From assembly GCA_963698075.1 (NCBI GenBank), contig OY969116.1, positions 83,881-147,880 of the forward strand: DNA of 64,000 nt, read 5' to 3'. Of the stretch, positions 7,993 to 45,204 are shown one piece after another. The notes below the pieces were generated by a model that was not told the origin of the DNA, did no database searches, and was given only the letters and a program-made list of their open reading frames with translations. The translations under genes and the position numbers were made by a program. Position 1 is the stretch's first letter. Every line of letters begins with the position of its first letter. This DNA is from an uncultured Candidatus Berkelbacteria bacterium. GTDB lineage: Bacteria > Patescibacteriota > UBA1384 > UBA12157 > JAENIV01.

Positions 7993-10812
7993 ATGGCAAT
8001 TTTAGAAACAATTGTTTTCCGAGGGTTAATGTATGCCATTTTGGTGGTAATACCGATTTTTTTAATTATTCTATATCTTAGGGCGCGGGCCAATAGAGCC
8101 AAGATGCAGTGGTTTGCTAATCTTAAATTTTTGACCATGAGAATCCTAGTTCCTAAAAATAATGAAAAGACCCCGCTGGCCGCCGAACAAATGTTTGCTG
8201 CTTTGCATGGGGTTTTCAGAAAAGAGAGTCAATTCCAAGATTATTTTTCCTTTGAAATTGCCTCGCGTGAAAAGTTTATTCAATTTTATGTTCATGTTCC
8301 TGAGCATCTTAAAGATTTTATTGAGGGCCAGATTTATTCGCAATATCCAACAGCGGAAATTACTCAAGTTGATGATTATACTTTAGAAGAACGAGAACAA
8401 ATTATCTCTGGCCAGTTCAAATTGGCTGGGACAGAATTAGGCTTGACTAATTTAGATGTTTATCCGATCAAAACCTTTCTTAATTTTGAAGTTGACCCCT
8501 TGGCGGGGATAACAGGCGTGCTTTCCAAACTTGAAAAGGGCGAAGAAATCTGGTTGCAAATTATTGTCAAACCAGTTTCCGACCTATGGCAGTCAAAGGG
8601 CATTGGTCATGTCAGATCGGTCAAGTCTGGGGCCACTAATCAGCAGGGGATATTCGTCGGAATTTTCGGCGCTTTTATAAGATTTTTAGGCGGTCTTCTT
8701 AGTGCCATTTTGACCGGGGTTACGCCGCCATCATCAAAAGAGGAAGCGCCCAAAGAAGAGGCTAAACTGCCAGGAACAGTTGAAGAAGGGCTTAAAGGTG
8801 TTGAAACTAAATCAACCAAACTCGGCTTTGAAACAAAAATCAGACTGCTGGCCTTGGCCACCGACGAAAACATCGCCAGATCAAAATTGGCCTCAACTGT
8901 GGCTGCCTTCAAACAATATAATTTGCTCAATTTGAATGGTTTCCAAGCCAGCAGTATCACCAACTCCTTGGCTTTTTACGATCAATATCGCTACCGGGCT
9001 TTTTTGGAGCCAGGTTATATTTTAAACATTGAAGAACTGGCCTCAATATTTCATTTGCCGAATGTTTCAGTGCAGACACCCAATATTGTTTGGGCGGGTT
9101 CCAAAAAAGGTGAACCCCCGGCTAATTTACCGATTGAAGAAAATGTCTTAAGTTCAGAACTAACTGTATTTGCCAAGACTGATTATCGACATCTGATGCA
9201 TAATTTCGGTATTAAATTATCGGATCGCCGTTATCACATGTATTCAATTGGCAAAACTGGCACTGGTAAAACAACCATGCTCGAAAACATGATTATTGAC
9301 GATATCCGCGAGGGTAGGGGAGTTGCCGTCGTTGACGCCCATGGGGACTTAATCAAAAAATTGCTTAACTATGTTCCCAGCGAAAGAATTAAAGACGTCG
9401 TTCTTTTTTCTCCGGCCGATCGTTTATATCCTCTCGGCTTTAATCCGCTCGAAAATGTTGATCCCGAGTTAAAAAATATTGTCGCCTCAGGCGTTGTCGG
9501 AATTTTTAAGAAAATATTTGGTGAATCCTGGGGACCACGGTTGGAATATATTTTGAGAAATACTATTTTGGCGCTCCTTGATTATCCCAATGCCACCATG
9601 CTCGGGATTACCAAAATTTTGGTTGACCAAGATTTTCGTAATCGTGTGATTGAAAAAATTCAGGATCCGGTGATTAAAGATTTTTTTGTTAATGAATACG
9701 AAAAATATGATCCGAAATTTCGGACTGAGGCCATCGCCCCGATTCAAAACAAAGTTGGCCAATTTTTATCATCATCAACCATCCGCAACATTGTTGGTCA
9801 GCCGAAATCAACCTTTAACATCGAAGAGATTATGAATACCGGCAAAATTATATTTATGGATTTATCAATTGGCGAAATTGGCGAAGACGCTTCAGCTCTT
9901 CTGGGCTCGATGATGATTACCAAAATTCAACTAGCAGCAATGCGACGGGCGACTATTCCCGAAGAAGAACGCAAAGATTTCTATTTATATGTTGACGAGT
10001 TCCAAAATTTTGCCACCGAATCTTTTGCGGTGATTTTATCTGAAGCTCGCAAATATCACCTGAATTTGATTATCACCCATCAATATATTGCTCAAGTTTC
10101 CGAAGAGGTCATGGCGGCTGTTTTTGGTAACTGTGGCACATTGGTTACTTTCCGTGTTGGCGCTCCTGACGCCGCCGCTTTGAAAAAAGAATATGAGCCG
10201 GTTTTTGAGGAAGTTGATTTAGTTAATTTAGATAATTATCATATCTACGTCAAAATGTCAATTGATGGCGTCACTTGTCCTGCTTTTTCGGCCGTCACTT
10301 TGCCTCCAGACAAGATGACTAATACCAATCGTGAAGCGATCCTTGCCCACTCACGCCAAAATTATTCCAAAAGGCGAGAATACGTTGAACAAAAAATGAC
10401 GGACCTAGCGGAAATGCCTAAAGTCGAACAAATCTTAACCAAGGCCGAGCGGGAGCGCATTCCCAAAATTCCGCCGAGAATAGGGGAGACCTATTATCGC
10501 GAAATCCAAACCCCGGGTGATGTTCGCTGGTATTTTGGTGGGGGAACAGTTGATCAGCCCCTGACCGAAGAGACGGTCCAAGAAAAATTAAAAAAACAAT
10601 TGGAAGAAACGCCAGATTGGATGAAGGAGCGACTCGCGGCTCTAGAAAAAAAAGATGATGGGGGAGAGGTGCCCGAAAAGATTGAAGATATTGAAGATTT
10701 AGAAAAAGATAAAGCAACGATGGTTTCGCATCTCGGTCCGTCGGAGAGCGGAAGTCGGATGTCAGATAGCAGTGTCCAACATCTCAAAGACGGTGAGACC
10801 ATTAAGTTGTAG
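7993..10812 (+). CDS. paralogous membrane-anchored VirB4/TraC-like P-loop ATPase, 939 aa
   Basis: Walker A YHMYSIGKTGTGKTT. Walker B YLYVDEFQNF. SEARKYHLNLIITHQY. The N-terminal domain shares motifs with the 4849-7347 protein (FxxLHGxxxxxxFSFEI, IxSQYPTAxI). Acidic C-terminal tail. Confidence 0.65.
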   Translation: MAILETIVFRGLMYAILVVIPIFLIILYLRARANRAKMQWFANLKFLTMRILVPKNNEKTPLAAEQMFAALHGVFRKESQFQDYFSFEIASREKFIQFYVHVPEHLKDFIEGQIYSQYPTAEITQVDDYTLEEREQIISGQFKLAGTELGLTNLDVYPIKTFLNFEVDPLAGITGVLSKLEKGEEIWLQIIVKPVSDLWQSKGIGHVRSVKSGATNQQGIFVGIFGAFIRFLGGLLSAILTGVTPPSSKEEAPKEEAKLPGTVEEGLKGVETKSTKLGFETKIRLLALATDENIARSKLASTVAAFKQYNLLNLNGFQASSITNSLAFYDQYRYRAFLEPGYILNIEELASIFHLPNVSVQTPNIVWAGSKKGEPPANLPIEENVLSSELTVFAKTDYRHLMHNFGIKLSDRRYHMYSIGKTGTGKTTMLENMIIDDIREGRGVAVVDAHGDLIKKLLNYVPSERIKDVVLFSPADRLYPLGFNPLENVDPELKNIVASGVVGIFKKIFGESWGPRLEYILRNTILALLDYPNATMLGITKILVDQDFRNRVIEKIQDPVIKDFFVNEYEKYDPKFRTEAIAPIQNKVGQFLSSSTIRNIVGQPKSTFNIEEIMNTGKIIFMDLSIGEIGEDASALLGSMMITKIQLAAMRRATIPEEERKDFYLYVDEFQNFATESFAVILSEARKYHLNLIITHQYIAQVSEEVMAAVFGNCGTLVTFRVGAPDAAALKKEYEPVFEEVDLVNLDNYHIYVKMSIDGVTCPAFSAVTLPPDKMTNTNREAILAHSRQNYSKRREYVEQKMTDLAEMPKVEQILTKAERERIPKIPPRIGETYYREIQTPGDVRWYFGGGTVDQPLTEETVQEKLKKQLEETPDWMKERLAALEKKDDGGEVPEKIEDIEDLEKDKATMVSHLGPSESGSRMSDSSVQHLKDGETIKL

Positions 10813-29766: not shown

Positions 29767-30456
29767 TTAAAAACTTTCAAATTTCCAAGTGGTAATATCG
29801 CCATCCGTCACCGGTTGAGCTGAAGCCCCAATCATCGAGTAGCTGCCGTTGTAATAAAATGCCCAATAGTAATTGTCATGGCCGCAGATTCCGGCAATGC
29901 AGGTGACAAACGCTCCCAATTCTTCGTAGATTTGATACTCAACACTAAAGCCATTTTCCTGACCTGTGCGAAGAAGAATCGAAAAAGCAGTATCATTAGT
30001 TTGGAGATTAATGGTATAATTGCCGATATTTTCGATTGCCACGGTTGCTTGGTCGGCTGGCGTAGGGGGCGGCGTGGGTGTTGGGCTTGCCCCGAGCGTA
30101 GTCGAGGGGATTGGCGTCGGGGAGGTTGGTCGTGGCGTAGAGGGTTTTTTAGATGATGGTGTCGGGGTGGGCGTGGGTGTTGAAGTTGATTCATTTGTGT
30201 CATTAGGTTGATCAGTCGCTGCTAAAATTTTCCGGCTCTCTGATGGTTTTTCCTCTTTGCTTGCGGCCACTTGAGTATTTCCTAAGTTGTATTCCAACTG
30301 GGTTATTCTTGTTTCGAGTTTATTTTGTTGTTCTTCCAATTTTTGATTTTTGATTTTTAAGTCAGCGACCGTTAACGCTCCGTAGACAAATACTAAAACA
30401 ATCCCAGCGGTAATTGGTAGCCAAAGGTAACTTAATAGTTTTCTCATGCGAAACAT
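29767..30456 (-). CDS. membrane-anchored DUF4430-like protein (coiled coil, Thr/Pro-rich linker, C-terminal DUF4430-like domain)
   Basis: The C-terminus (GAFVTCIAGICGHDNYYWAFYYNGSYSMIGASAQPVTDGDITTWKF) matches the DUF4430 pattern as recalled (G.FV.sIdG..YWmfyVNg...D.Y...DGD.I.W.y). Confidence 0.6.
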   Translation of the reverse strand: MFRMRKLLSYLWLPITAGIVLVFVYGALTVADLKIKNQKLEEQQNKLETRITQLEYNLGNTQVAASKEEKPSESRKILAATDQPNDTNESTSTPTPTPTPSSKKPSTPRPTSPTPIPSTTLGASPTPTPPPTPADQATVAIENIGNYTINLQTNDTAFSILLRTGQENGFSVEYQIYEELGAFVTCIAGICGHDNYYWAFYYNGSYSMIGASAQPVTDGDITTWKFESF

Positions 30457-41603: not shown

Positions 41604-41948
41604 ATGAAGATTCTGGTGGCTGATGACGATCCTACATGGCGTCGGATTAACGCCAGGTACCTTGCCGAGGCTGGGCACGAGGTAGTTGAGGCCAAGGACG
41701 AACTGGAGGCCATGGCATTTTTTCGCCAAGACATCAATGGTTACGGCGCTGTGGTGTCTGACAACGATATGGTCCAGCAAGGTGCGGGGATTAACATTCT
41801 TAAGGAAATGAAGGAGCTTCGACCAACGGGATTGCGTTGCGTGCTGATAACCGGCAGGGATATCAAGACACTTCCCGAATGGATTGATCAACTCGTCGAC
41901 AAAGCGGACTTTTCGAAAGAGGCATTGCTCGCGGCCATCACCGCCTAA
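41604..41948 (+). CDS. stand-alone response-regulator receiver (REC) domain protein
   Basis: MKILVADDD...; AGGAGGG RBS; GC about 52%. Confidence 0.8.
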   Translation: MKILVADDDPTWRRINARYLAEAGHEVVEAKDELEAMAFFRQDINGYGAVVSDNDMVQQGAGINILKEMKELRPTGLRCVLITGRDIKTLPEWIDQLVDKADFSKEALLAAITA

Positions 41949-41974
41949 CAACATCGAGACTTACCACAGCGACC

Positions 41975-42003
41975 AGAGGGTTCAAACAATGAACCCTCTT
42001 TTG
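41975..42003 (+). terminator. AGAGGGTTCA-AACAA-TGAACCCTCT-TTTT
   Basis: 10-bp stem plus T4. Confidence 0.7.
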
Positions 42004-42030
42004 AGTTTAATCGGATTTGACTTTAGACAC

Positions 42031-42059
42031 TTGACAAAAGGGCTAAAGTGTGCTACAAT
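42031..42059 (+). promoter_or_regulatory. sigma70 promoter TTGACA-17-TGcTACAAT (extended -10)
   Basis: read in the sequence. Confidence 0.5.
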
Positions 42060-42064
42060 ATGGG

Positions 42065-42093
42065 GTCTTTCGCCAGTGCGGAAGACTTTTTTT
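42065..42093 (+). promoter_or_regulatory. promoter-proximal hairpin GTCTTTCG-CCAGTG-CGGAAGAC plus U7 at the 5' end of the lytic transglycosylase transcript
   Basis: read in the sequence; a paralogous element lies at 44533-44561. Confidence 0.4.
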
Positions 42094-42157
42094 AACCTTG
42101 AAATTCGTCTTTCTGGTCTTACTTACTCCTAACAGGGTAGGATAAGGTGCAGATAAG

Positions 42158-42853
42158 GTGATTTCAAGAATAAGGACTTCTTCAAACATGTTAACCAAAA
42201 TTGTCTCTGGAACGTACTTTCACAACTTCGTCAAAAATAAATTTACCAAGATTTCGGCTGCCAGCATGATCGTTAAAATGCTTTTAGTGGTCGCGATCTT
42301 CGGTTTAGAACCAGTCAACAGCCATCAAACCTACAATACGGCCGTCAAGTTAGATAGTAATTCACCGACCGCGTTAGCTGGTAAAGATCGCCAAGTTGCG
42401 ATTGAATCTAGCGTTTCCAACTTCGACGCCAAAAAAAGCGCTGCATTACGCGGTCAAATCGCCTACGCTCGACACATTGAATCACCTGCGGGAATCGAAA
42501 ACTATATCGGATTGTATAAAGACGCGGCTGCTCGCTATGGTATTCCGTGGAATGTTTTAGCCGCTGTCCACTATGTCGAGTCTGGCGCTTCCGGTTCAAC
42601 CGACCGTTCATCCGGCGCCGGCGCTCAAGGTCCAATGCAGTTTATGCCTGGTACCTGGAGAGCTTACGGTGTTGATGCTGACGGTGACGGTGTCGCTGAT
42701 GCCACCAATGTTAATGACGCTGTCTATGGTGCGGCTAACTTGTTAGCCGCGGGTGGTGCTGCTGAAGGTAACGTTGATGGTGCTTTGTTCAACTACAACC
42801 ACGCTCAGTGGTATGTAAATAAGGTGAATGAAGTTGCCTCTAGCATCCAATAA
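42158..42853 (+). CDS. lytic transglycosylase (MltB/SLT_2-like) with N-terminal TM
   Basis: GPMQFMPGTW motif; start uncertain (GTG 42158 or ATG 42188). Confidence 0.7.
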   Translation: MISRIRTSSNMLTKIVSGTYFHNFVKNKFTKISAASMIVKMLLVVAIFGLEPVNSHQTYNTAVKLDSNSPTALAGKDRQVAIESSVSNFDAKKSAALRGQIAYARHIESPAGIENYIGLYKDAAARYGIPWNVLAAVHYVESGASGSTDRSSGAGAQGPMQFMPGTWRAYGVDADGDGVADATNVNDAVYGAANLLAAGGAAEGNVDGALFNYNHAQWYVNKVNEVASSIQ

Positions 42854-42952
42854 GGATCTAAGCAACTCCAAAAAGAGCCCCTCTGTTCGCCAATTGGACA
42901 AAGGCTCTTTTTGGTATGGAAAATTAATATGCGGAAGCCGGCCCAACTTCCG

Positions 42953-43906
42953 TCAGGCCGGCTCATCAGGTTCGTCACTTGTCTCCTCTCCGAAGAGCGA
43001 AACAGGCTTACCGGCTTCGGCGATCTCGCCTTGCTTTAACGTAAGCTGGGCTTGTAGATCGCCCAGCTTACTAGCCGCCGTTCGGACACGGGCTTCAGCG
43101 GCTTCGAGCTCGCCTCGGGCGCTCTCGATTTGGGCTTCCAGCCGTCGTCCATCTTCCTCGAGCTTTCTCAGGCGGGTGTAAGCCTGGTTCTGATATTGAG
43201 AAGCGGCGAGCTCTAGGAGAATTTCAGTAGGGGCATAGCGCTTCTCATCCTGCGAGTCTGGCATCAACAACCCTCTTGCTACCAGCCTTGGTACGATAAA
43301 GCGGAGAGTGTTGGCGTGACTAACGTTTCCACTCCTCACACGCCGACTCGCTGCCTGTCTGATCATCTCAAGGGTGAAGCACTCCTCTCCCTCTGTCTTC
43401 ATATCCTCATAGAGTTGGAGGGCGATCACTCTTCTGCCGCCGAAGCCCGTCAGGTCGTCAGCGAGTTCGTTCCATTGCTCAACCCAAGCTTGATGTTGCT
43501 GGCGTCTGTTCTTTGATCTCGCTGCTTGGGCCTCCTCTTCGGCATACCGCTCCTTATGACGCTCCATCCAAGCAACCAGTTCTGGCTTGGCCGATCGGAG
43601 GATGCTTTCGGCGATCGCGACGGATGGGCAAAGGAGGAAGCACTTCCAGCGGTAGAGATTACCTTGAGGCTTTGTCCGGAGTTCAAGAGCCACCGGGTTA
43701 GACTCATTGAAGCAGAAGGCCTCTACCTCGGGAGTGTAGCTTGATCCCTTCATCCGTCGGGCTTCAACGAATAGGAGGTATTCATGCCTCTGGTCTGGCT
43801 GGGGAAAGATCTGCTGGAGCCAGAGGGCCACGGCGTGTTCGAAGCTTGGCTCATCGACTGTGTAGCTATGCTGGCCAAGCAGCTTAGCCTTCACGAGATG
43901 CGGCAT
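42953..43906 (-). CDS. GC-rich (~57%) hypothetical protein with a C-terminal coiled coil
   Basis: 317-aa ORF; flanked by ~60-nt direct repeats that share an exact 16-mer GGCTCTTTTTGGTATG (42904-42919 and 44048-44063). Confidence 0.5.
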   Translation of the reverse strand: MPHLVKAKLLGQHSYTVDEPSFEHAVALWLQQIFPQPDQRHEYLLFVEARRMKGSSYTPEVEAFCFNESNPVALELRTKPQGNLYRWKCFLLCPSVAIAESILRSAKPELVAWMERHKERYAEEEAQAARSKNRRQQHQAWVEQWNELADDLTGFGGRRVIALQLYEDMKTEGEECFTLEMIRQAASRRVRSGNVSHANTLRFIVPRLVARGLLMPDSQDEKRYAPTEILLELAASQYQNQAYTRLRKLEEDGRRLEAQIESARGELEAAEARVRTAASKLGDLQAQLTLKQGEIAEAGKPVSLFGEETSDEPDEPA

Positions 43907-44117
43907 TGCGGTTACCTCGCCTTCTGGTTAACGTTCGCCCAATAAAAAAATACAGCGCCTGATGTTAATTAGCAAGTAGGCAACCGTCACCTGGCCCTTT
44001 GCAGCTTGCCTGTTGGAGAAAATATCCTCTGTCCGCCTTTCGGACACGGGCTCTTTTTGGTATGAGAAAGCCGGCGCTAACGGGCGCCGGCGAATGGTTG
44101 TTATAGTTGGGCTGTTA

Positions 44118-44498
44118 TCAAATGCTTACGATTGCATAGATAACTAACAATGCCATTATGGCGGTGACGACCGAGAAGGCAAAATCCATACCTCGATCTT
44201 CGCGGTCCGCCTTCTCCCAATTGGGAGCTGTTAGGATGAGCGCCCATCCGGTAGCAGACATCACTGCCACTTGGAAAAGACAAATCCCCAGGAAGATGCG
44301 GGGATGGTTAGAGGCTGTACCGGTGATAACCGTGATCATCTCAAGCAGAAAAAAGGATATGCCGAAACGATAGCAGAGACGATGCATTCGCTGGCGAAAT
44401 TCGTATCGCCTGTCAGTTAAGTTCCGGCAGTTCATCTCATCCTCCAGGAGTTTATTAATTCTATTTTCGCATGTAAAAGGCCTAATTGGCAAATCCAC
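44118..44498 (-). CDS. hypothetical membrane protein (126 aa)
   Basis: C-terminal TM helices. Confidence 0.4.
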   Translation of the reverse strand: MDLPIRPFTCENRINKLLEDEMNCRNLTDRRYEFRQRMHRLCYRFGISFFLLEMITVITGTASNHPRIFLGICLFQVAVMSATGWALILTAPNWEKADREDRGMDFAFSVVTAIMALLVIYAIVSI

Positions 44499-44527
44499 TT
44501 GACAAAAAACGATCCTTATGCTATGCT
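44499..44527 (+). promoter_or_regulatory. sigma70-like promoter TTGACA-17-TATGCT
   Basis: read in the sequence. Confidence 0.4.
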
Positions 44528-44532
44528 CGGGT

Positions 44533-44561
44533 GTCTTCTGCTAAGCGCGGAAGATTTTTTT
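44533..44561 (+). promoter_or_regulatory. promoter-proximal hairpin GTCTTC-N11-GAAGAT plus U7, directly 5' of the RBS of the glucosaminidase gene
   Basis: paralogous to 42065-42093. Confidence 0.4.
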
Positions 44562-44574
44562 AATGAGGAGAAAA

Positions 44575-45204
44575 ATGTTGGTTTTAATCCCAAGATTAAT
44601 CGCCCAATTTGGGCCAAAAATTAAAAAGCTTTTCACAAGGAATTATCGGCTCCGAATTCCTCACTTAAAGATAGCTTCAAACCTAATATCTGTTTTTTTC
44701 ATTTTCGCCATGTTGCCATTAGTCGGTCTTGTAGGTGAAGCCAACTATTTAGATTCTAATTCAACGACCGTTAAGTTAGATACCAATAATCCTTTTGCCG
44801 TAACTGAACCTGATAGAACCGTCAATATCTCCGTCGGTATTTCGCGCTACGAGCTAGCTCGACGCGGAATGACTCATGATCCGGTCCAGATAAAGCTTTT
44901 AATCCAGGAAATCGCTCCTGAATACGGGGTTGATTGGCGCCTGGTTTATGCCATCGGCTATCTTGAATCAGGTAATTTTAACTCGACGCTGGCTCGCTAT
45001 CAAAACAACTTCTTTGGCCGCAAAGCTTCTTCCGGCGTTTATGCCTCCTGGCCGAATACTCTTGAAGCCATTAACAACCAATGTGAATACTTAAAGACTC
45101 GTTATATAGATAGGGGTCTTGATACTCCTTACGAAATGAATCATGTTTACGCCGAATCAGACACTTGGGGTGCCAAAGTCACTGGCATTATGAACTCTTT
45201 GTAA
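44575..45204 (+). CDS. N-acetylglucosaminidase/muramidase (GH73 FlgJ/LytD-like) with N-terminal TM
   Basis: AIGYLESGNFNSTLARYQNNFFGRKA; its N-terminal propeptide resembles that of 42158-42853 (T..VKLD.N.P.A....DR.V.I). Confidence 0.65.
   Translation: MLVLIPRLIAQFGPKIKKLFTRNYRLRIPHLKIASNLISVFFIFAMLPLVGLVGEANYLDSNSTTVKLDTNNPFAVTEPDRTVNISVGISRYELARRGMTHDPVQIKLLIQEIAPEYGVDWRLVYAIGYLESGNFNSTLARYQNNFFGRKASSGVYASWPNTLEAINNQCEYLKTRYIDRGLDTPYEMNHVYAESDTWGAKVTGIMNSL

Follow-up and report, generated by a model that had tools for sequence, protein, structure and literature searches.

Stem-loops at the extreme 5' end of mRNAs are known as stabilisers from the leaders of E. coli ompA and of B. subtilis aprE and ermC. 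In phage lambda, the PR'-tR' unit places the late genes under Q antitermination, and the lysis genes among them include a transglycosylase. Termination very near the promoter, at about +30, is unusual, and we know of no direct test of termination efficiency at that position. Gene regulation in CPR bacteria (Patescibacteria) is almost unexplored and, to our knowledge and in agreement with literature searches, no cis-regulatory RNA is known that serves their cell-envelope enzymes specifically. For lytic transglycosylases (LTs) of these epibionts, a role in breaching host envelopes has been proposed (PMC11665869). In Streptococcus, the yjbJ motif, a weak riboswitch candidate, lies before a lytic transglycosylase (Narunsky et al. 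2024, PMC11109978). B. subtilis terminators with weak basal pairs depend on NusG/NusA (Mandell et al. 2021, PMC8060035), and the optimal site of CspB is 5'-GTCTTTG/T-3' (Morgan et al. 2007, PMC1904285), a specificity measured on DNA and in another phylum.

The DNA analyzed here, a 64-kb stretch from a Berkelbacteria bacterium (hereafter the window), contains genes for two peptidoglycan hydrolases, an LT and a GH73 glucosaminidase, each preceded by a hairpin and a run of seven U. An earlier note on this DNA had drawn attention to both hairpins, and their sequences and coordinates were confirmed, as were the sigma70-like promoters that it had placed before the two genes. No description of this element was found in the literature on promoter-proximal terminators before peptidoglycan hydrolases or on CPR RNA motifs. 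The features of the two loci, in window positions, are as follows.

42031-42059, plus strand: LT promoter, -35 TTGACA at 42031-42036, 17-nt spacer, TG-extended -10 TACAAT at 42054-42059 (consensus scan 11/12 plus TG)
42065-42093, plus strand: LT leader hairpin 1 and U7, stem-loop GUCUUUCGC-cagu-GCGGAAGAC at 42065-42086, U7 at 42087-42093
42096-42173, plus strand: LT leader hairpin 2, long and irregular, whose base joins CCUUGAAAU, directly after the U tract, to AUUUCAAG, directly before the Shine-Dalgarno sequence
42171-42176, plus strand: LT Shine-Dalgarno-like UAAGGA, 11 nt before ATG 42188, as read from the sequence
42188-42853, plus strand: LT gene, SLT_2/SLT domain (Pfam), N-terminal membrane anchor and conserved Y-x-TAVKLD motif
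42868-42914, plus strand: 3' terminator of the LT gene, CCAAAAAGAGCC...GGCUCUUUUUGG (fold -22.1 kcal/mol)
44499-44527, plus strand: GH73 promoter, -35 TTGACA, 17-nt spacer, TG-extended -10 TATGCT (consensus scan 10/12 plus TG)
44533-44561, plus strand: GH73 leader hairpin and U tract, GUCUUCUGC-uaagc-GCGGAAGAU at 44533-44555, T run at 44555-44561
44565-44570, plus strand: GH73 Shine-Dalgarno sequence GAGGAG, 3 nt past the U tract (AA/U between) and 4 nt before ATG 44575, as read from the sequence
44575-45204, plus strand: GH73 glucosaminidase gene (Pfam PF01832), N-terminal module as in the LT

At the DNA level, the LT element reads GTCTTTCGC-cagt-GCGGAAGAC followed by T7 and AA (42065-42095), and the GH73 element GTCTTCTGC-taagc-GCGGAAGAT followed by T6 (a T7 run with the closing T) and AA (44533-44563). 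Both stems have 9 bp, the loops have 4 nt (LT) and 5 nt (GH73), and folding as single hairpins gave -14.5 kcal/mol (z -3.2) for the LT element and -11.8 kcal/mol for the GH73 element, which was also listed as terminator-like. In each locus 5 nt separate the hairpin from the extended -10, and transcription is predicted to start at the conserved G42065, 6 nt past the -10, for the LT and at G44533 for GH73. The consensus promoter scan found no promoter-like sites 3' of the hairpins and, given the distances of the GH73 Shine-Dalgarno sequence from the U tract and the ATG, there is no room for a second promoter in that leader. A degenerate pattern fitting both elements had two matches in the window and none in 100 shuffles, and a covariance model of the element (R1), run with filters off, found only two strong copies in the 64 kb (LT 34.7 bits, GH73 45.7 bits). 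No Rfam 15 family was found at the two elements, either in the whole window at the gathering threshold or in 41950-44650 at E<=10; nor, at the gathering threshold, at the LT and GH73 leaders of 23 related loci (19+4), where the only match was RF00557 before rplJ in one locus (L212).

Pfam matches agreed with the enzyme identities proposed in the earlier note, and so did a BLASTP alignment (29% identity over 132 aa, E=2e-12) with the N-terminal motif that it had seen in both proteins, which share an N-terminal module. Searches retrieved 831 LT homologues, database entry P0001 being identical over 221 aa, and 77 GH73 homologues, on the same contigs as LT orthologues. By comparison with P0001, the LT most likely starts at ATG 42188 (221 aa, conserved N-terminus MLTKIV) rather than at GTG 42158, the start given earlier. 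ORFs inserted between the LT and GH73 genes had no informative Pfam, PHROGs or NCBIfam matches.

That the hairpins are not ordinary terminators had been argued from the lack of a plus-strand gene ending upstream. This premise was wrong for the LT: a receiver-only response regulator gene on the plus strand (41604-41948) ends 117 nt upstream of its hairpin. The conclusion stands on other grounds, as both hairpins lie downstream of the genes' own promoters, and upstream genes either have their own terminators (41975-42005 for the response regulator gene, upstream of the LT promoter, and 42868-42914 for the LT gene) or are divergent. In relatives, the response regulator gene is absent and the gene upstream of the LT is divergent; the LT 3' terminator is conserved after the LT in four related loci (L082, L084, L206 and L207). 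The plus-strand gene upstream of the LT in the window, and the paralogy of the LT and GH73 genes in their 5' parts, could still suggest that the hairpins terminate or insulate transcription from upstream, or that they are relics without function of the duplication from which the paralogues arose. However, the coding N-termini have diverged down to 29% identity while hairpin and U tract stayed nearly invariant across a phylum-level clade; conservation and context refute this reading, to which we assign virtually no probability.

Absence of the element from orthologous genes in relatives had been named beforehand as grounds for abandoning the proposal. This test did not refute it, the element being present before both gene families in all relatives examined: a unit of promoter, hairpin and U5-8 stands in front of the LT and the GH73 orthologues at each Berkelbacteria-type locus retrieved (32 leaders), with protein identities of ca. 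45-85%, the same type of promoter and the order promoter-hairpin-CDS in all loci. Between -10 and stem there is a constant distance of ca. 5 nt, with a conserved G, and 0-2 unpaired nt precede the stem from the predicted +1 in all leaders. The U tract has 5-8 U in 32/32 leaders (mode 7). Stems have 7-10 bp and their sequence is more conserved than structure alone requires, whereas loops (3-7 nt, with a 45-nt insert in locus L004) are conserved neither in sequence nor in length and promoter spacers drift as well. Paired cells amounted to 93.7% in the 32 R1 matches, versus 84% in shuffles (0/500) and ca. 55% in slid controls. Double changes were observed at 6/9 stem pairs, upper-stem pairs swapping G-C for C-G, in leaders that are phylogenetically related, so that these counts do not represent independent events. 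Judged by this conservation, the two elements are neither chance nor a private duplication; exchange between the LT and GH73 leaders is the probable reason why the two copies are almost identical in this genome.

Non-Watson-Crick stem pairs comprised 53 G·U and a single A·C, which indicates that the helix has been selected as sense-strand RNA and not as a DNA operator. A palindrome extending from +1 to +23 does occupy the classic position of an operator, at which a dimeric repressor would act as a roadblock. This proposal is largely refuted, and we regard it as scarcely credible: the symmetry exists only in the sense-strand RNA, half-site spacing varies with the loops and with the L004 insertion, and upper-stem G-C pairs are exchanged for C-G.

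The element is also gene-specific. All 32 R1 matches with E<0.05 in 325 kb were LT or GH73 leaders. In 274 kb of related DNA, the element follows 26 of 49 consensus promoters, in each case before LT or GH73, and the 23 others lack it, for which reason a generic promoter property of these genomes was rejected. In a pattern scan across metagenomes, about 90% of the matches listed were ordinary terminators of unrelated organisms, only promoter-adjacent matches being informative. LT leaders of distant Patescibacteria show the same architecture and U tract with unrelated stem sequences, and those of Saccharibacteria show the same layout. A terminator directly after a consensus promoter might also yield an abundant hairpin RNA of ca. 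30 nt with a role of its own, for instance that of a decoy to which an RNA-binding protein attaches, with expression of the downstream genes as a by-product. This appears very improbable, given that the element always stands directly before LT or GH73, never alone, and that these genes have no other promoter. Conservation, covariation, the G·U signature and gene specificity strongly support a functional, shared, promoter-proximal RNA element that couples both peptidoglycan hydrolase genes and is distinct from an ordinary 3' terminator. To this extent the co-regulation put forward in the earlier note is sustained; an attenuator and a protein site are candidate mechanisms.

The leader hairpins have the geometry of intrinsic terminators, namely a stem of ca. 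5-14 bp with G+C, a loop of 3-8 nt and at least five U within 0-2 nt of the stem, and a folding energy (-11.1 kcal/mol) close to that of local 3' terminators (-11.7 kcal/mol). By contrast, their four basal pairs contain 1.17 G-C on average, versus 2.73 in 26 local 3' terminators (p=4e-9). With basal pairs G·U, U-A, C-G, U-A and U-A/U·G, they fall under the definition of NusG/NusA-dependent suboptimal terminators by weak basal pairs (PMC8060035). In all loci the terminator-like hairpin lies in the 5' leader, between promoter and CDS, as in an attenuator. The antiterminator and upstream sensor of a classical attenuator (aptamer, leader peptide or protein site) were not found at the LT and GH73 leaders; with only 5 nt between the -10 hexamer and the stem, there is no upstream transcript to house a sensor.

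Other candidates were tried and rejected. An ANTAR/RAT-type antiterminator target, which calls for a conserved hexaloop pair (ANTAR) or for a ~29-nt RAT that reaches from upstream into the terminator 5' arm, was discarded in view of the unconserved loops and the lack of RNA upstream of the stem. A 15-codon UUG ORF after the U tract of the window's LT leader, a possible leader peptide, is not conserved in three related loci (L082, L084 and L001). Bypass of the terminator by switching the transcription start was dismissed, as a start 1-2 nt downstream still leaves a 7-8-bp stem abutting the U tract. A seeming third copy before rplJ (882-904), UCUCGC-ggcaa-GCGAGA-U6, was identified as the terminator in which a canonical L10 leader (Rfam RF00557) ends, 6 nt before rplJ; it is not a member and was used as an internal comparator.

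A stabilising 5' hairpin had been offered earlier as the alternative to attenuation, and proved compatible with it rather than exclusive of it. If transcription starts at the conserved G, the hairpin lies within about 4 nt of the 5' end, as expected of a stabiliser. In its pure form, this explanation holds that the hairpin blocks 5'-end-dependent decay (RNase J/RppH-type), the U tract being an unstructured A/U-rich ribosome landing site or spacer, with little or no termination. It accords with the 0-2 unpaired nt before the stem at the predicted +1, with the U tract directly before the Shine-Dalgarno sequence in short leaders, and with the fact that expression of both genes must pass through the element. 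However, 5-8 U abut the stem even in the long LT leaders, 60-140 nt from the start codon; the geometry is that of the L10-leader attenuator terminator of the same genome; and a stabiliser needs neither weak basal pairs nor a perfect U run. Besides, the U tract is kept even in distant LT leaders with unrelated stems, which points to an attenuator, since a stabiliser alone would not need it. We therefore consider a pure stabiliser unlikely.

Our preferred reading, which we hold to be somewhat more likely than not, is a transcription attenuator that has no sensor, is leaky or tuned by a factor, and serves at the same time as a stabilising hairpin at the 5' end; here we infer termination from sequence and geometry. 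A strong extended -10 promoter of the sigma-70 type would drive each gene, and the transcript would start at the conserved G, the first base of a 7-10-bp hairpin followed by U5-8, that is, a putative intrinsic-terminator-type attenuator within the first ca. 30 nt of the mRNA. Lacking another promoter, and any upstream RNA from which an antiterminator or sensor could form, LT and GH73 would be expressed only by read-through. From the weak basal pairs, incomplete termination that can be adjusted in trans is predicted. It might be controlled by general factors (NusG/NusA), by NTP supply, or by a protein that binds single-stranded RNA and would seize the pyrimidine-rich 5' arm (GUCUUYY) ahead of synthesis of the 3' arm. 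After read-through, mRNAs would keep the extreme 5' hairpin and probably be protected from 5'-end-dependent decay, and the shared element would bring both hydrolases under common control. More tentatively, and with rather low probability, this could be a hitherto unrecognised class of sensor-less attenuator widespread in Patescibacteria/CPR, with a terminator from +1 whose closure is decided in trans by a Csp-like chaperone on the GUCUUYY arm, by NusG/NusA or by NTP levels, coupling two membrane-anchored hydrolases to physiological state. No csp gene was found in 434 kb of CPR sequence, a negative that carries no information because this sequence spans two syntenic regions only.

Conservation of the stem beyond structural need could equally denote a specific site for a protein that affects stability or translation. 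A dedicated sequence-specific regulator, for which a GGA-binding CsrA-like protein is a candidate, might recognise the GUCUUCUGG/CCRGRAGA stem and control translation or decay of both mRNAs, termination being incidental. GGA, GGGA or AGGA is always present in the 3' arm, further GGA motifs occur in LT hairpin 2 including the Shine-Dalgarno sequence, a related Berkelbacteria genome (L210) has a CsrA gene, and stem sequence persists while loops and promoter spacers drift. Yet the GGA lies in paired stem positions instead of a loop, distant LT leaders share the architecture without the sequence, no regulator gene other than a HisKA kinase is conserved in the neighbourhood, and the U tract is left unexplained. 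We judge this explanation improbable.

The second hairpin of the LT leader recurs in minimum free energy folds of 11 LT leaders and coincides with inverted repeat I17 at the window copy. An RNAalifold consensus of 10 LT leaders contained 20 pairs in this hairpin, 10 of them with compensatory changes. It pairs an anti-Shine-Dalgarno-like CCUU with the region adjoining the Shine-Dalgarno sequence, which occurs as UAAGGA or AAGGA at the same spacing in orthologous LT leaders, and may add a translational layer. Along with the weak basal pairs and the probable exchange between leaders, this hairpin goes beyond the observations of the earlier note.

Berkelbacteria conserve the element itself and other Patescibacteria, Saccharibacteria among them, its architecture. 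The present analysis supplies its consensus, a covariance model and its clear gene specificity, and, Saccharibacteria being genetically tractable, the element is directly testable there. Given that LTs have been proposed to breach host envelopes, a brake shared by LT and GH73 may control a key step of the lifestyle. A sensor-less attenuator, if true, would rank among the earliest cis-regulatory circuits to be defined in CPR bacteria, would provide a ready-made part for controlling expression in them, and would couple hydrolases proposed to act on the host envelope or on the cell's own wall to physiological state. The usual antiterminator logic has no place in a terminator that starts at +1, so that a confirmed case would represent a separate design of attenuation. 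A mere leaky terminator plus stabiliser would still be a useful natural part for tuning expression, of modest general interest.

The yjbJ motif and the ydaO/c-di-AMP riboswitches are, like the LT and GH73 elements, structured 5' leader RNAs of peptidoglycan hydrolase genes, but they are multi-helix candidate ligand sensors, unrelated in sequence, structure and taxa. The NusG/NusA-dependent terminators of B. subtilis (PMC8060035) are mostly 3' terminators, whereas the present hairpin occurs in a CPR bacterium at an unusual mRNA 5' position, and its factor dependence is predicted. With respect to cold-shock RNA chaperones acting as antiterminators, the 5' arm (GUCUUUC/GUCUUCU) resembles the CspB site, U2, C3 and U4 always matching, purely as a sequence resemblance; it emerges first and would be ideal for a protein that prevents hairpin closure. 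The ompA and aprE/ermC stabilisers place a hairpin at the extreme 5' end with few unpaired nt at most, as is predicted for the LT and GH73 mRNAs; unlike the present elements, they lack both the shape of a terminator and a conserved U tract next to the stem. The L10 leader shares the hairpin with U6-7 between promoter and start codon, the pyrimidine-rich 5' arm and purine-rich 3' arm, the position a few nt before the start codon and the need for read-through. It differs by ca. 150 nt of upstream RNA with an L10-binding mimic, GCCGAAGAAAAUAGG...CCUAUCGAGGC (727-790), whereas the LT and GH73 hairpins begin at the predicted +1, with no sensor, antiterminator or leader peptide. Lambda PR'-tR' also combines a strong constitutive promoter with a promoter-proximal terminator that yields a short RNA, a transglycosylase being made only on read-through. 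We know of no Q-like factor for LT and GH73. By contrast to lambda, which uses a DNA qut site, the dedicated Q protein and a terminator ca. 190 nt downstream, LT and GH73 are chromosomal, syntenic core genes.

An SLT-type lytic transglycosylase (LT) and a GH73 glucosaminidase, both peptidoglycan hydrolases, are encoded on the plus strand of the window downstream of near-consensus promoters with a TG-extended -10. At each gene a hairpin followed by a U tract begins 5 nt past the -10 hexamer, as follows:

42031-42059 (+), LT promoter, TTGACA-17-TACAAT
42065-42093 (+), LT element, GUCUUUCGC-cagu-GCGGAAGAC and U7
42158-42853 (+), LT ORF, SLT_2/SLT domain (Pfam), likeliest start ATG 42188
44499-44527 (+), GH73 promoter, TTGACA-17-TATGCT
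44533-44561 (+), GH73 element, GUCUUCUGC-uaagc-GCGGAAGAU and U6-7
44575-45204 (+), GH73 glucosaminidase (Pfam)

A degenerate pattern fitting both elements had two matches in the window and none in shuffled sequence, and an unfiltered covariance-model search of the 64 kb returned only these two as strong copies. Seven canonical hairpins with at least five T were found in intergenic regions of the window, comprising four ordinary 3' terminators, the two LT/GH73 leaders and one site before rplJ. Rfam gave no match to these or to the related LT/GH73 leaders. The upper stem of the window LT hairpin is of the type typical of GH73 leaders and differs from that of the closest relative, L081. This suggests recombination between the LT and GH73 leaders, which would account for the near-identity of the two hairpins.

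The two proteins have in common an N-terminal region of about 130 residues (29% identity, E=2e-12, BLASTP), consisting of a membrane anchor and the motif Y-x-TAVKLD-x-x-P, which is kept across aligned LT orthologues. The window LT protein has an identical counterpart among database entries, and the relatives that carry names are Berkelbacteria/Patescibacteria. Orthologues of the two genes share contigs. The neighbourhood is conserved on both flanks: MgsA and a small EF-Tu-domain-2-like gene lie divergently on one flank, and the opposite flank has DUF3048, a beta-propeller protein and a HisKA kinase; the LT-GH73 interval consists of variable material. In the window, a direct repeat (82%; 42880-42923 and 44026-44069) duplicates the 3' half of the LT terminator and flanks a G+C-rich segment (42924-44069, ~56% vs ~42%), an arrangement suggestive of an insertion that duplicated its target. 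Its 317-aa ORF (42953-43906, -) had no match in Pfam, PHROG or NCBIfam, and is present in L081 and absent from L084, L085 and L206. A further 126-aa ORF (44118-44498, -), which has a terminator of its own, occurs in the window only.

The earlier note, whose observation of hairpins and promoters held up with the LT start codon corrected to ATG 42188, had stated that no upstream plus-strand gene ends there. A receiver-only response regulator gene is in fact present upstream (41604-41948, +; G+C raised, ~52%), with its own terminator (41975-42005). It separates the LT promoter from the divergent EF-Tu-domain-2-like gene, is missing at that position from related genomes and is probably another insertion. 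In related loci the LT -35 hexamer lies within a palindrome, TTGACA-nn-TGTCAA (L084 4801-4814, L081 4840-4853, L082 4861-4874, L153 804-817 and other LT promoters), whose opposite strand provides a -35 for the EF-Tu-domain-2-like gene (in L084, with TATGAT 18 nt away). The two promoters appear to be back-to-back, with overlapping -35 elements common to both. In the window, where the response regulator has probably been inserted, this palindrome is degraded. Elsewhere in the window, a cobalamin riboswitch (RF00174, 30537-30731, -; 33.1 bits, just over the gathering score) lies upstream of minus-strand genes at 29767-30456, and the edge (1-327, +) holds what reads by eye, in translation, as the 3' part of an IS200/REP-associated Y1-transposase-like ORF; among related loci, L082 and L209 carry Y1_Tnp genes as well.

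Related loci were collected from species-representative genomes, exact-protein contig look-ups and a metagenome pattern scan (among the matches listed). The earlier note would have counted absence of the motif from orthologous genes against its reading; on the contrary, every Berkelbacteria-type locus retrieved, at ~45-85% protein identity, carries upstream of both LT and GH73 a unit in which a consensus promoter is followed by ~5 nt with a conserved G at the end, then a hairpin of 7-10 bp and U5-8. More distant LT homologues from other Patescibacteria (L009, L011, L015, L016 and L021, among them two loci labelled Saccharibacteria) keep the architecture of extended -10 promoter, few nt, hairpin with pyrimidine-rich 5' arm and purine-rich 3' arm, and U5-7. 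Their stems are unrelated in sequence, e.g. UCUCUC/GAGAGA and UUCCCAUG/CAUGGGAA. Retention of structure and U tract where sequence differs argues that terminator shape itself is the selected feature. The LT leader of L004 (~2190-2265) keeps a basal stem GUCUUUUC/GAAAAGAC and U5 around a 45-nt loop insert, predicted to fold into a three-way junction (in it, GGAGGAA...UUCCUCC encloses CCCC-uuca-GGGG and GGUUC-gcaa-GAACC), which may be either an aptamer-like expansion or merely a stabilising one.

A covariance model of the element, R1, was built from 31 leaders and used to search both strands of 325 kb of Patescibacteria (CPR) sequence; all 32 matches with E<0.05 were LT or GH73 leaders. In the 32-leader alignment pairing held in 93.7% of cells, vs 84% in column shuffles (0/500 as high) and ~55% in slid controls. 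Six of nine stem pairs showed changes on both sides, e.g. G-C to C-G at the stem top. Non-Watson-Crick cells comprised 53 G·U and one A·C, and loop length ranged from 3 to 7 nt. Together, the covariation, the 53:1 ratio, the variable loops and the L004 insert are incompatible both with a palindromic DNA operator and with an RNA of the antisense strand. Since the leaders share phylogenetic descent, such counts are not independent, although the evidence points unambiguously one way. The element is very probably a selected sense-strand RNA hairpin-U element.

Its gene specificity was assessed in 274 kb of Berkelbacteria-type DNA made up of the window, the regions around LT/GH73 and four rplJ neighbourhoods. 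Among 49 intergenic consensus extended -10 promoters, 26 were followed by a hairpin and U tract, and every one of these belonged to an LT or GH73 leader; no such element followed the remaining 23. The hairpin before rplJ in the window was considered as a third member and rejected. It belongs to the following arrangement:

693-721, promoter of the L10 leader
727-790, L10-binding mimic
882-898, hairpin, with T6 at 899-904
911-1432, rplJ
1521-2204, rplL

The hairpin, UCUCGC-ggcaa-GCGAGA-U6, ends 6 nt before the start codon of rplJ, which has no obvious Shine-Dalgarno (SD) sequence. RF00557 reaches threshold at the orthologous region of L212 (9849-10005), the window leader staying below the gathering score. 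As the terminator of a canonical L10 leader, this site is a known attenuator rather than a member of the LT/GH73 motif; its R1 score was 18.9 bits.

The element is real, conserved, gene-specific and absent from Rfam. A consensus scan of the window found no promoter-like site downstream of either hairpin, and the GH73 SD (GAGGAG) lies three nt 3' of the U tract, so both genes would be expressed only by polymerases passing the hairpin-U. As the stem starts at the predicted +1, no upstream RNA is available to form an aptamer or antiterminator or to encode a leader peptide; the single short ORF 3' of the U tract lacks conservation among the compared leaders. In stability the hairpins equal 26 genuine 3' terminators of the same genomes (mean dG -11.1 vs -11.7 kcal/mol), whereas G-C pairs among the four basal ones were far fewer (1.17 vs 2.73, p=4e-9). 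B. subtilis terminators whose terminal A-U/G·U pairs are weak are atypical, requiring NusG-stimulated pausing and NusA (PMC8060035). The most economical reading is that the element would act as a leaky, factor-tunable attenuator, with read-through mRNAs keeping the 5'-terminal hairpin. We infer termination, its regulation and the transcription start sites of these leaders, and lean towards premature termination as the element's main function. It is best classed as a transcription attenuator lacking a cis-acting sensor, and probably serves as a 5' stabiliser too.

Within Berkelbacteria the stem sequence GUCUUYYG/CRGRAGA is conserved beyond pairing requirements, which, with the constant pyrimidine-5'/purine-3' polarity, suggests that one arm is also read single-stranded. 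Cold-shock proteins are antiterminators, and one that binds the 5' arm is a lead from sequence resemblance. The optimal heptamer of B. subtilis CspB is GTCTTTG/T (PMC1904285), which the arm resembles, the preferred T2, C3 and T4 being always present. No csp gene was found in 434 kb of related sequence, covering only two syntenic regions. CsrA is another candidate regulator, given the GGA-rich 3' arm and the second LT hairpin; in Berkelbacteria GW2011_GWE1_39_12 (CP011213) a gene of the CsrA family (PF02599; L210 9391-9705, -) separates rplA from the rplJ leader.

That second hairpin, found in 'long' LT leaders, is irregular and 60-100 nt in length, and covariation backs it, 10 of its 20 pairs having compensatory changes. 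At its base an anti-SD-like CCUU directly 3' of the U tract pairs with AAGG adjoining the SD, and it holds another GUCUUUCUGG-like segment. GH73 leaders are mostly short (hairpin, U tract, SD, AUG); the types are swapped between the genes in some genomes (L207). Some GH73 leaders (L082 6945-7052, L144 ~1190-1300, L153 ~2000-2080) have, 3' of the U tract, an insert that is structured and conserved, AAYCUA-[hairpin]-GAGRUUAAUCCGC...; it is present also after the rplJ leader terminator in L211 (~9905-9995; same genome as L082). This RNA insert had no Rfam match and may be mobile or modular.

In comparison with known systems, the L10-leader terminator resembles the LT/GH73 element in its pyrimidine-rich 5' arm, purine-rich 3' arm and U6-7, and likewise lies a few nt before a start codon. 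The 5'-terminal hairpin that LT/GH73 read-through products would carry also agrees in geometry with known mRNA stabilisers.
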